Part shown: positions 40,449 to 43,545 of the stretch, in pieces | Layout: each line of letters begins with the position of its first letter | How positions within the stretch are numbered: position 1 is the stretch's first letter | Source: an uncultured delta proteobacterium | GTDB lineage: Bacteria; Desulfobacterota; RBG-13-43-22 | Assembly (NCBI GenBank): GCA_963790475.1 | Contig: CAWBOS010000015.1 | Coordinates: 320,001-384,000 of the forward strand | Direction of reading: 5' to 3' | DNA length: 64,000 nucleotides | Position numbers and translations under genes: made by a program | The notes under the pieces: generated by a model | What the model was told of the DNA's origin: nothing | The model's input: the letters and a program-made list of their open reading frames with translations, nothing else | The model's database searches: none

Positions 40449-40955
40449 ATGGCATCTCCAGAAGGCGCGAAATTGGCGCAATTGATTCGGGAGAAGGTGG
40501 CAGAAATGAACCGGCTTTGTAAGGGATTGGACGAGGGCACGGCCTCCCGGGCTCCCGAGGGAAGATGGACTCCCAAGGAGATCATCTCCCATCTGTCCGG
40601 TCCTGAAGGCATCGGTTATGGGCCGGCCCTCCAGGCCATCCTGAAGCAGGATACTCCCCTAATAGAGATTGAAGCTGCCAACCCCTATTATACGGGGAAG
40701 CGCCCCCAAATGAAATTTTCTGAACTTTTATCCGAGCTTCAAAGAGAATACGGCCGAATGGCGGACGTGGTCGAATCTTTATCCGATGAGCAGTTGGCCC
40801 GGAAGGCCCATGTCCCCTTATTCAAGGATTTACCAATAGGAGAATATCCGACCCTGATGGTGTTTGTTCAGGCCTTAGCCGGATATCACATGGGTGATCA
40901 TCTCAACCACATGAAGGAGATTCTCCAAGGTCTGGGGGTCGCCCTTCCCTCTTAA
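40449..40955 (+). CDS. DinB-like family protein
   Basis: WTPKEIISHL motif and C-terminal H...H...H. Confidence 0.8.
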   Translation: MASPEGAKLAQLIREKVAEMNRLCKGLDEGTASRAPEGRWTPKEIISHLSGPEGIGYGPALQAILKQDTPLIEIEAANPYYTGKRPQMKFSELLSELQREYGRMADVVESLSDEQLARKAHVPLFKDLPIGEYPTLMVFVQALAGYHMGDHLNHMKEILQGLGVALPS

Positions 40956-41202
40956 AGGTCACGATAATCCCCCTAATTAACCCTGTCCGCTTCAAGCGGG
41001 CCAAAGCGGATAGGGACTTTTATAGAAGGAGATAGGGATAAGTCCGGTCGGGCTTGGAGTTGATCGTTAGCCTTTTCCTGGAAGGAAACATTCGTTCTAA
41101 GCTGCACGTCTAAAATGGAGGAGACCGGCATCACCCCTGGGGCCTCATCCTGCGAGACTAAGGGGACTTAGTTTATTGTAAAAGTAATCGTTTTCCATGG
41201 TT

Positions 41203-41242
41203 GTCATTCCGGACTTGATCCGGAATCCAGTCTTTTCAACCT
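41203..41242. repeat. REP-like palindrome, left part (interrupted by the IS)
   Basis: GTCATTCCGGACTTGATCCGGAATCCAG...; pairs with 42775-42799. Confidence 0.85.
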
Positions 41243-41343
41243 AGACATAATGGCTGACAATTAAAAAAGCGACCTGCCCCTTATCGTCGTGGGTTATATT
41301 AGGGAGTGATCCCAATACAGAGCCAAGAATAAGGAGGCAGGTC

Positions 41344-42456
41344 ATGAAACATTTTATCACAGTTGTCGGTATGGATGTACACAAAGATTCCATAGAGATT
41401 GTAATCGCCGAAACCACGGGAACTGAAGAAGTTCGGCATTACGGAAAAATTAACGGCGACATGGCCTCATTGGACAAAGCAGTCAGAAAACTCAAAAGCA
41501 CCAGTAGGGAACTGCACTTTGTCTATGAAGCTGGGCCATGCGGCTATGAGATTTACCGTCACCTATCCTCGCAGGGGTTTACTTGTGTGGTCGTTGCCCC
41601 CTCGAAGACTCCCAGACGGAGCGGCGACCGAGTCAAGAACGACCATCGCGATGCCCAGACACTGGCCCGGCTTTATCGGGCCGGGGAGTTAACCCCGGTC
41701 TATGTCCCTCGACCGGACGACGAAGCCATGAGAGATTTGACCCGCGCCCGGGAAGATGCGGTCAAGGCCTTGCGCACTGCTCGTCAACACTTAGGGGCTT
41801 TTCTGCTTCGGTATGGCCATAGGTACCCCGGTAAAACATCCTGGACGCCTGCTCATAGGCGTTGGCTATCGGACGTCACCATGCCCCACCCCGCCCAGCA
41901 GATTACCCTTCAGGAATATATCCACACGGTAAACGAGGGCACCCTGCGAGTCGGTCGTTTAGTTGACCAGAGTCTGAAGCTGTTGCCCCAATGGAGCCTG
42001 GCCCCAGTGGTTGAAGCCCTCCAGGCCCTCAGAGGGGTGGCTCCTATTGTGGCTATAACCACCGTCTCTGAGATCGGCGATATCACTCGTTTTGAGAACC
42101 CCCGGCAGTTCATGGCCTATCTGGGTCTGGTTCCCTCGGAACACTCCAGCGGCCAGTCCGTCAAACGGGGCAGCATCACCAAAACCGGCAATGGCCACGT
42201 AAGGCGCGTTCTCGTTGAAGCGGCGCATGCTTATAGCTATCCGGCCCGGATAAGCAGGTTTCTGCTCAAACGACAACAGGGACTGCCGCAGCCCATCCGG
42301 GAGATCGCCTGGAAGGCCCAGGTTAGACTCTGCGGCCGGTTCCGTAGGCTTATGGCCCAAGGAAAAATGAAAACCAAAGTGGTAACCGCCATCGCCCGCG
42401 AGCTCTCCGGCTTCATATGGGCGATTGCCAGGGAAGTTCAGTTACGAAACGTGTAG
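41344..42456 (+). CDS. IS110 family DEDD transposase/recombinase
   Basis: GMDVHK, YEAG and KNDHRDA (DEDD); YLGLVPSEHSSG serine motif. Confidence 0.97.
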   Translation: MKHFITVVGMDVHKDSIEIVIAETTGTEEVRHYGKINGDMASLDKAVRKLKSTSRELHFVYEAGPCGYEIYRHLSSQGFTCVVVAPSKTPRRSGDRVKNDHRDAQTLARLYRAGELTPVYVPRPDDEAMRDLTRAREDAVKALRTARQHLGAFLLRYGHRYPGKTSWTPAHRRWLSDVTMPHPAQQITLQEYIHTVNEGTLRVGRLVDQSLKLLPQWSLAPVVEALQALRGVAPIVAITTVSEIGDITRFENPRQFMAYLGLVPSEHSSGQSVKRGSITKTGNGHVRRVLVEAAHAYSYPARISRFLLKRQQGLPQPIREIAWKAQVRLCGRFRRLMAQGKMKTKVVTAIARELSGFIWAIAREVQLRNV

Positions 42457-42512
42457 CCTAGGTCAAAAAACAAACCTTCTTAAAGGAGTATAGAGACCAC
42501 CCATTATATCCT

Positions 42513-42704
42513 ATCCAGGGGACCAGCAGAGACGCGACCCCGTTGGGAGAATCCTCGAGGAATCCAAGGAATAAGGTCATCCGAATTTCCGATCCTAGAG
42601 CGAGGCAGCTCCTGTGACGAAGTCAAGTCAGGCGTTCAAAATACGCGAATATCAGAATGATCAAACGTCGCTAAATCGGTCCCGTCTCTGCTTGTGCCCT
42701 GGAT
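42513..42704 (+). ncRNA. Putative bridge/seek RNA
   Basis: 27-bp closing stem (24/27) enclosing two stem-loops with 8-nt matches to target and donor junction. Confidence 0.75.
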
Positions 42705-42774
42705 TAAACTGACAGTCTAACCCTCTACTAGGGCCAGGAAAAATCTTTTCCTCTTGACAACTGTCAGCCATATC

Positions 42775-42799
42775 GGATTCCGGCTTTCGCAGGAATGAC
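42775..42799. repeat. REP-like palindrome, right part
   Basis: GGATTCCGGCTTTCGCAGGAATGAC. Confidence 0.85.
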
Positions 42800-42942
42800 G
42801 GATTAAGACTATTGTAAACCCATTACTAAGAAACTACACTAAGGGTCGATTCTTTTTTTTTCATAAAACATGAGCTAAATCGCCTATCGATAACAAGAAA
42901 ATTCGCAAACGAATAACCTTTGACCGGATTTCTACTCCGGTT

Positions 42943-43545
42943 TTATTGATAACGGATCACAATCCCACCAAACACACTTGTGGCTTCAATTAACAAATAA
43001 TTCTGGTTCTCATCGAAATTTTTGCTTTGATAAGTAGAGGTTCCAAAAGCGCCGGTAACATTCTCCGGTAATTGTACCCCGCCAAAAACAGCCTCCGCTT
43101 TAATGCGAACGGGTGTTGTTTCACTTAAAATGACCTCCGCGCCACCAAAGACGACCTTGATCTTTATTGGGGTAACTCTTTCCTTAAGTTCGACACCTCT
43201 CAAATCAATAAAGGCCTTCCCGAATAAGGCATTATACTCTTTTGAATCTCCGGAGAGGCCTCGGTAAGTCCTCTCCTGAAATAGGACATTTCCGGCTTTT
43301 CCCTGACAGGAAGGGAAAGAAATACAACTACCAAAAATAATTTTCAGACCGATAAAAATGAGAATCAAACCGAAAAGGACCTTGAATATCGGAATGTGGA
43401 TATTGAAAATAACATTGACAATGATTCCCAAACCTAAAAGAATAATTAAAATTCCAATGAACAGTCCCAGTCCCATTTTCATAACCTCCTCCTCATTTTT
43501 AATATCGGATTTCCTTTGGGGATGGAAAGAGTATAAGATAGGCAT
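42943..43545 (-). CDS. LiaF/DUF2154-like membrane protein
   Basis: Two TM helices, then repeated (V/L)FG(G) beta-repeats; true start likely MKMGLG near 43482. Confidence 0.75.
   Translation of the reverse strand: MPILYSFHPQRKSDIKNEEEVMKMGLGLFIGILIILLGLGIIVNVIFNIHIPIFKVLFGLILIFIGLKIIFGSCISFPSCQGKAGNVLFQERTYRGLSGDSKEYNALFGKAFIDLRGVELKERVTPIKIKVVFGGAEVILSETTPVRIKAEAVFGGVQLPENVTGAFGTSTYQSKNFDENQNYLLIEATSVFGGIVIRYQ

Follow-up and report, generated by a model that had tools for sequence, protein, structure and literature searches.

An IS1111-type insertion sequence in a REP-like repeat very probably carries the RNA that specifies its own target

What places an insertion sequence precisely at the foot of a repetitive extragenic palindromic (REP)-like hairpin, and always in the same orientation? 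The question is raised by positions 41243-42774 of a 64,000-nucleotide stretch (the window, whose numbering is used throughout) of contig CAWBOS010000015.1 from an uncultured delta proteobacterium. A preliminary description, made from the sequence of the window, saw here a recombinase accompanied by an RNA that appeared to be programmed for a REP-like palindrome. In the present study we find that this locus is very probably an intact IS1111-type insertion sequence of the IS110 family, which encodes its own guide RNA (seekRNA or bridge RNA) in the 3' non-coding region. The premises of the preliminary description, namely that IS110/IS1111 RNAs specify target and donor and that IS621 resides in REP sequences, are in print (PMC11187229, PMC11208160). 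The mechanism matches the IS1111 seekRNA/bridge RNA system published in 2024, and no new mechanism is revealed.

The limits of the element are given by uninterrupted paralogous sites in the same genome, which read ...CAACCT^GGATTCC... (the caret marks the join) and more fully ...GGAATCCAGTCTTTTCAACCT directly followed by GGATTCCTGC...GGAATGAC. The insertion sequence therefore occupies exactly 41243-42774 on the plus strand (1532 bp) without target duplication, and the target T^GGATTCC, which the preliminary description had reconstructed, is borne out by these sites. The left flank ends in CCT (41240-41242), the end of the left half of a repeat unit, and the right flank is the REP-like hairpin GGATTCCGGC-TTTC-GCAGGAATGAC (42775-42799, recognised from genome copies). 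The sub-terminal inverted repeats, ATGGCTGACA at 41250-41259 (12/16 positions when compared with the right repeat) and TGTCAGCCAT at 42762-42771, are perfect over 10 nt; the distance to the element's end is 7 nt for the left repeat and 3 nt for the right one. Outside them are the left terminal extension AGACATA (41243-41249), deduced from the uninterrupted sites and from end comparison, and the right extension ATC (42772-42774). Three copies of the element, all in the same orientation beside GGATTCC hairpins, are found in the genome and differ at 2/1532 bases: position 42047, where the window has I235 and both other copies have T, and position 42444, which is synonymous. Their left flanks are unrelated except for the final CT, their right flanks begin GGATTCC(G/C)GC...GGAATGAC, and from just outside the REP unit onwards the flanks are unrelated. 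The near identity of the copies together with the unrelated flanks indicates separate insertions and not segmental duplications.

In order to compare this element with its relatives, a protein search was made that gave 8000 scored homologues, the top 120 of them at no less than 71% identity and mostly metagenomic. A genome scan with one genome per species confirmed 592 places, from which 80 loci (61-97% identity) were retained and fetched, so that 81 loci including the window were available. The sub-terminal repeats are conserved in 65/81 loci by motif scan. The remaining 16, in which the motif found no repeat pair within 520 nt (frameshifted genes, longer non-coding regions, cut contigs), were dropped; the same RNA scaffold is nevertheless present in the eight of these that were inspected. 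When the 7/3 rule was applied to the loci with repeats, the ends came out as AGACATAATGG...CCATATC almost everywhere. Dropping a further 6 loci with a non-coding region outside 260-360 nt left 59 loci with 46 distinct non-coding regions; the right end is CATATC in 59/59 of these rows and the left end AG in 57/59. The structure alignment comprises 41 of the 46 regions, L076 (internal duplication), L088 (long insertion) and the near-duplicates L077, L085 and L091 being omitted. Side by side with these, L041-L046, L048, L063, L105-L108 and L110 contain an additional 130-170 bases, placed either between stop codon and scaffold or after the scaffold; judged by these loci, the non-coding end is tolerant of insertions outside the structured core.

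The element devotes 318 nt to non-coding DNA 3' of the gene (42457-42774) and 101 nt 5' of it. The long form of the guide RNA, a structured core, is assigned to 42513-42704 on the plus strand by folding and alignment covariation. Its outer stem (42513-42539 / 42678-42704), which had been put forward in the preliminary description as enclosing two stem-loops, is paired at 24/27 positions and is present in the minimum-free-energy fold of the single non-coding region (-103.6 kcal/mol, z = -4.39; 0/100 shuffles as stable). In the consensus structure the first, target-binding stem-loop (42546-42612) consists of GGAG/CUCC (42546-49 / 42609-12), CCUCG/CGAGG (42553-57 / 42601-05) and an inner hairpin (42567-42591), and the second, putatively donor-binding stem-loop (42614-42671) of a closing stem and an inner GCG/CGC hairpin. 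RNAalifold recovers the outer stem, both loop-1 stems and the loop-2 closing stem with its inner hairpin from the 41 distinct sequences. Pairs were counted on this structure with the loop-1 inner hairpin added: 94.9% of the cells are standard pairs, compared with 34.8-49.2% after a shift of the 3' partners by 1-3 columns, and 24/48 pairs have changed on both sides; the covariation score obtained is equalled in 0/500 shuffles. Within the outer helix, double changes are seen in 17/23 pairs. A permissive Rfam scan of 40900-43100 (E <= 1) found no family inside the element, and when the genome was searched with an RNA-core profile, the three element-borne copies were the only matches, with no orphan RNA genes. 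In L076 (1537-1749) the stem and the first guide segment of the target loop are tandemly duplicated (CCCTCGAGAGCACTA twice).

Two short stretches of this otherwise constant scaffold are hypervariable, and they are the guide segments. The motif GGAATCCA, which the preliminary description had placed inside the first stem-loop, does lie there at 42559-42566. It belongs to the first guide segment, A+GGAAUCCA (42558-42566), nine nucleotides right after the CCUCG stem whose reverse complement gives the final left-flank base followed by 7-8 bases from the start of the right flank, and which is here complementary to the top strand T^GGATTCC (left flank last base and 7 right-flank bases). In 5000 mononucleotide shuffles of the non-coding region, an antisense match of at least 8 nt spanning the target join arose in 134, a sense match of at least 8 nt spanning the end-to-end join in 194, and both kinds in 5; the single sequence is thus suggestive only, and it is the comparison of guides with flanks that decides. 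The right flanks of the relatives fall into many classes (GGATTCC, AGGTTGA, AGGGTCA, AGTGCCT, AGTGTCC, AGCAGGC, AGTTTTC, AGCCTTC, AACGCCC, ACGAGTT and others). The comparison covers 54 usable insertions; 20,000 permutations were made, with one insertion per distinct guide. The first segment pairs with its own flank at a mean of 7.26/9 positions and with the flanks of elements that have other guides at 4.19; the pairing is 9/9 in 2 insertions, 8 in 28, 7 in 13, 6 in 7, 5 in 2, 4 in 1 and 3 in 1. At positions +3 to +8 of the right flank, 121/162 bases match over 27 distinct guides, a value reached by 0/20,000 permutations (mean 54.7, maximum 80). The base that pairs with the first right-flank base varies too, being C here (G in the target) and U in most relatives (A in the target).

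The second guide segment, AUCCU+AGA (42592-42599), sits on the 3' side of loop 1, just 5' of the CGAGG stem. It reads like the top strand: CCU corresponds to CCT of the left flank and AGA to the element's first three bases. Pairing with the bottom strand, at CCT of the left flank and the bases after it, is therefore possible. Over 22 distinct guides 68/110 bases agree with the left flank (permuted mean 37.1, maximum 54), and again 0/20,000 permutations reach this number. The preliminary description had called the second segment of each loop weak; in loop 1 it is real and AUCCU tracks the left flank, and in loop 2 no such segment was found. It had also named, as what would speak against a guide, homologues that keep the same loop 1 at other targets. 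The opposite is observed, as loop 1 changes with the flank in 27 guide classes, and the claim that the RNA specifies the target is upheld by both segments. The specified site is CCT^GGATTCC, and in the group of 97-100% identical elements (n=5 insertions) the left flank is CCT in 4 and TCT in 1, and the right flank GGATTCC in 5/5. The 3' strand of the outer stem also contains, at about 42698-42705, CCTGGATT, which agrees with the target in the sense direction over 8 nt; this was set aside as a coincidence because the segment is conserved in relatives with other targets. The subfamily is very large and environmental, with a near-constant scaffold in which 9-nt and 3-5-nt segments change with the insertion site, and it thereby offers a naturally occurring collection of guides with their targets for IS1111-type systems, on which less work has been done than on IS621.

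The host site is itself a repeat. The insertion point is the centre of a unit some 150 bp long, bounded by the inverted ends TAGTGTA...TACACTA and containing two oppositely oriented REP-like hairpins; the unit resembles a miniature inverted-repeat transposable element. By matches to the uninterrupted genome copies, its left half lies at 41169-41242, with a REP-like hairpin at 41206-41226, and on the right the unit extends to about 42846. Uninterrupted copies are present in the window genome (G000) at C10:1448560-1448740, C12:798000-798175 (minus strand) and C6:346820-346945 (minus strand); a further copy of the unit, at C10:207340-207650, is interrupted by about 170 bp holding more hairpins, and in that at C12:1482920-1483075 the central part is tandemly duplicated. 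Within the 6.34-Mb genome the word TGGATTCC occurs 637 times (193 expected by base composition) and CCTGGATTCC 109 times (11.5 expected), and 145 sites open a GGATTCC...GGAAT palindrome. A REP-like palindrome as target, as the preliminary description had it, agrees with the position of all three element copies, each beside such a GGATTCC...GGAAT hairpin. The DNA that encodes the guide (42553-42569) carries on its bottom strand the target word TGGATTCC, on the strand opposite the first segment because that segment is complementary to the target; here it is preceded by CTT, not CCT. This near-target, CTT+TGGATTCC, is held by all three copies and is occupied in none.

Such a setting also invites the explanation that the recombinase protein itself recognises the REP hairpin and that the matches in the loop arise merely as a consequence. 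Both the three copies and the insertions in relatives are found at a hairpin foot, and REP targeting is reportedly common among several insertion sequence families, as the title of a 2006 paper by Tobes and Pareja has it. However, relatives with 62-70% identical recombinases are found at unrelated, non-palindromic flanks that match their own loops, and the flanks of L031 and L032 share only CCT^GGATTCC. We consider recognition of the hairpin by the protein to be very improbable, and selection of the site by the guide RNA is the reading followed below.

The recombinase gene (41344-42456, plus strand) is an open frame of 370 aa, preceded by a ribosome-binding site read from the sequence as AAGGAGG (41331-41337, 6 nt 5' of the ATG). 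Domain matches identify a DEDD RuvC-like N-terminal domain (PF01548 DEDD_Tnp_IS110, 6.2e-20, residues 8-157) and a C-terminal domain (PF02371 Transposase_20, 8.5e-24), and the NCBIfam model NF033542, 'IS110 family RNA-guided transposase', gives 268.2 bits against a cut-off of 140. Residues D11, E62, D100, D103 and G270 are identical in 14/14 proteins (the window protein and 13 homologues of 72-90% identity), whereas position 269 is S in 12/14 and T in 2/14. The segment GLVPSEHSSG (residues 261-270) fits the G..P....S/T-G motif given for the IS110 family in PMC11187229. The open frame, the domain matches and the conserved catalytic residues thus agree with the intact DEDD and serine recombinase, followed by 318 nt of non-coding DNA, that had been described. 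Similarity to transposases of solved structure is distant and confined to the C-terminal domain (ISCro4, 7.1e-10; IS621, 1.2e-07).

The joining of the ends bears on expression. A -35-like hexamer, TTGACA (42754-42759), lies near the right end and a -10-like hexamer, CATAAT (41246-41251), near the left end, both on the plus strand. They come to lie 18 nt apart only when the ends are joined, which was done in a script, giving TTGACA-N18-CATAAT with 11/12 consensus positions. A promoter-like site spans the join in 46/49 distinct joins of the family, and a simple scan of the linear element revealed no sigma-70-like site. A junction promoter was shown experimentally for ISEc11 and ISEc21 according to PMC11187229, and we infer that the joined ends form a promoter in the present element as well.

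Thus, we propose the following mechanism, whose steps apart from target pairing are modelled on published relatives. The element would be excised as a circle in which its ends abut as ...ATATC^AGACAT..., and this join would create the promoter that drives recombinase and RNA as one transcript. The RNA would then be trimmed and bound by the recombinase. By the comparison of guides and flanks, segment A+GGAAUCCA pairs with the top strand T^GGATTCC of the target, and segment AUCCU+AGA can pair with the bottom strand at CCT of the left flank and the next bases. Between them the two segments set the insertion point to the join of CCT and GGATTCC, with a single orientation, at the base of a REP-like hairpin of which the genome has many copies. 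The serine of the SSG motif and the DEDD domain would exchange the strands without target duplication, and AUAUCAG in loop 2 would probably hold the joined ends. The guide, the target, the ends and the uninterrupted sites of this cleanly delimited, apparently intact RNA-guided recombinase are all found in one genome.

Several observations weigh against the element being an IS1111-type system that works in this way. At 370 aa the recombinase exceeds the 330-350 aa that PMC11187229 gives for IS1111 transposases, and the IS5075 transposase shows 28% identity over 75% of it. The second guide segment is informative only at -1 to -3, agreement with the left flank (n=50) being 47/50 at -1, 43/50 at -2, 30/50 at -3, 19/50 at -4 and 16/50 at -5, the last two near chance. 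Its AG faces GG in the target of the window lineage, which is one mismatch, and 4/54 insertions (e.g. L047) pair at 5/9 first-segment positions or fewer. For loop 2, a second donor segment complementary to the left end was not found by eye or by script, and the family consensus fold of RNAalifold pairs AUCA of AUAUCAG with a downstream UGAU in the loop. In the public data, four runs all stored as assembled contigs, there is no contig joining 42774 to 41243, that is, no circle junction. Relatives 90-99% alike were seen in these runs, two of them in RNA libraries. The RNA-library contigs cover parts of the gene and 42321-42576; at this likeness they may come from relatives or from DNA in the library, and they were rejected as a sign that the window copy is transcribed.

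Does the element still move? It could be a resident relic that is no longer mobile, its copies stemming from the duplication of a larger segment or from long ago. The examined public assemblies show, besides the missing circle junction, no fresh insertion site; only 3 sites are occupied compared with the 109 CCTGGATTCC sites, and the linear element is without a promoter-like site. This explanation is unlikely in view of the near identity of the three copies and their unrelated flanks just outside the REP unit, of the intact open frame and catalytic residues, and of a relative's genome in which 97%-identical copies (L031, L032) sit at other GGATTCC sites. An active element, as the preliminary description supposed, is plausible, the grounds for this being the three near-identical intact copies. 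A search of public runs found the stretch mostly in sediment and soil metagenomes. Contigs that join about 41230 to 42775 were discarded as traces of an empty site, since the letters between differ and they represent uninterrupted REP pairs of other places or organisms. In one metagenome contig of run X2, position 41486 is followed directly by 42503, so that 1016 bases of the recombinase gene are missing and the RNA region is kept; the shorter side has 52 letters, and this single contig may be a deletion derivative of a relative.

The second stem-loop raises the question of how the element's own ends are recognised. The preliminary description had located in it the motif ATATCAGA, at 42649-42656, as identical to the predicted circle junction ...ATATC^AGA..., and the motif is indeed there. 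In the RNA it reads AUAUCAGA, the right end ATATC joined to the left end AGA, and its AUAUCAG part is invariant, the 7-nt identity to the joined ends being exact in 41/41 sequences. Since AUAUCAG and the element ends are both nearly invariant, the donor match is consistent yet beyond a covariation test. The elements whose left end is AGC (L072, L077, L085, L099) carry a C at the matching place both in loop 2 (CAGC) and in the second target segment (UAGC), and Durrant et al. (PMC11208160) predicted loops that bind the donor in IS1111 members. Alternatively, AUAUCAG may be kept for folding or for binding of the recombinase, with the protein recognising the ends through the sub-terminal repeats. 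That no covariation supports the pairing agrees with this, as does the AUCA/UGAU pairing inside the loop. Moreover, L035 (GGACAT) and L050 (CGACAT) have altered first bases and their loop 2 keeps CAGA, and AUAUCAG is followed by any of the four bases in different elements with a constant left end AGA. A short seekRNA of 82 nt suffices for ISEc11, and the role of the long form is given as not established in PMC11187229. We regard this alternative as possible but doubtful. A donor guide for the joined ends in AUAUCAG is fairly probable; the missing complementary segment and the sufficiency of the short seekRNA for ISEc11 keep us from putting it more firmly. Across the joined ends, antisense matches are no longer than 4 nt, and the 5' side of loop 2, AAGUCAAGUCA, was rejected as a donor segment because it has only 5-6 nt in common with the sub-terminal repeat region, which is too weak.

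The bases next to the join deserve separate consideration, as cases in which target and element differ there bear on the place of strand exchange. In most relatives the right flank begins with AG, the first two bases of the element, and the position of the boundary is then ambiguous by two bases in either direction, as it is for the IS621 shared core. Target positions +1/+2 are GG in the window lineage, AC in L067, AA in L088 and AG elsewhere; the first segment follows the target at these positions in the window lineage, L067 and L088, while the second segment and the element keep AG. The AG/GG mismatch means that, unlike in most relatives, target and element are without two shared bases next to the join. 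At GGATTCC sites the right junction has GG in 9/9 cases (the three genome copies, L031, L032, L035, L036, L037 and L038), and AG stands at the left end in 9/10 left junctions, the tenth being that of L034 and the exception L035 with GG. Junctions so uniform are not as expected from a 2-nt staggered exchange with random segregation; the sequences suggest that the strands may be exchanged at the same bond, immediately 5' of the differing bases. At its 3' end the second segment invariably has the element's initial bases (AGA); what it spells is therefore the left junction present after insertion and not an unoccupied target. This wording of the segment suggests that it may recognise the junction from flank to element, which would fit the need for correct flanks in excision reported in PMC11187229. 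We put forward only tentatively the wider idea that target and element need not share the crossover bases, that both strands would be exchanged at one fixed bond, and that a single RNA segment would have two uses, in excision, through recognition of the junction from flank to element, and in the hand-over step of insertion. If true, such a one-bond exchange would differ from the shared-core model drawn from IS621. L035, at a GGATTCC target, carries the GG of the target at its left end, which could be a trace of how the join bases are resolved; L050 begins with CGACAT.

The element shares its organisation with known systems to different degrees. Terminal extensions of IS5075 type are 7 and 3 nt long. 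Like the window element, elements of this type reportedly combine sub-terminal repeats that have terminal extensions with a fixed target (Partridge and Hall, 2003). Several features of the IS1111 group are present here: 10-nt repeats, 7/3 extensions, no duplication, a longer 3' non-coding region and a junction promoter predicted from sequence. As described by Siddiquee et al. (2024, PMC11187229), IS1111 members have a 7-bp left extension, and ISEc11, ISPa11, ISKpn4 and ISPst6 likewise have sub-terminal inverted repeats with a 7-nt left extension; sub-terminal repeats of 7-17 bp are given for IS1111 in PMC11208160. The IS1111-family seekRNA elements of the former report also lack a target duplication, have a long non-coding region 3' of the gene and a promoter at the joined ends, and show natural retargeting among relatives. 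In the seekRNAs of ISEc11, ISPa11 and ISKpn4 (PMC11187229) the match to the top strand likewise stands 5' of the match to the bottom strand in one loop, the two overlapping in the target. The window element differs from ISEc11 and its kin in its protein (370 aa compared with about 340), in its target sequence and in the two bases after the join, which in its lineage differ between target (GG) and element (AG). RNAs were predicted in the right end of 93.0% of the IS1111 entries of ISfinder by Durrant et al. (PMC11208160).

The resemblance to IS621 is looser. Choi reportedly found IS621 in REP sequences in 2003. Its bridge RNA system, as presented in PMC11208160 and PMC11208158, likewise combines a DEDD/Ser recombinase with insertion into REP sequences and a circular intermediate (predicted for the window element), and one RNA holds separate target and donor loops, as in the window element, where the donor loop is putative. 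In contrast, the IS621 RNA lies in the left end, its sub-terminal repeats are 2-3 bp long and the order of the strand matches is reversed. ISPpu9 and ISPpu10 of Pseudomonas putida are IS110-family elements that occupy REP sequences, ISPpu9 having a small-RNA gene 3' of the transposase according to PMC12288879; P. putida has orphan copies of the RNA, unlike the window genome. The closest named relatives that we found are the ISSfr2 and ISSso6 family transposases of RefSeq plasmid records, with 55.7% and 48.6% identity, respectively, over 96-99% of the protein. Parts of the same RNA scaffold occur in both 3' regions, GGAGAACCCTCG and CAACCCGCG in that of ISSfr2 and CCAACCCGCGAATATCAG, together with the right end CATATC, in that of ISSso6, whereas the guides and flanks of both differ from those of the window element.

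Two minor observations concern the surroundings. To the left of the repeat unit, 41059-41089 on the minus strand gives a sub-threshold Rfam match to the CRISPR direct-repeat model RF01370 (22.9 bits compared with a gathering value of 39, E = 0.049), which, as a single copy, is probably due to chance. G000 further contains four distant IS110-family matches of 27-33% identity (C1:240682-241551, C13:479468-480337, C12:171633-172190 and C12:1483202-1483663), two of which span about 290 residues and two of which are shorter; the duplicated REP unit on C12 is about 130 bp away from one of the four.

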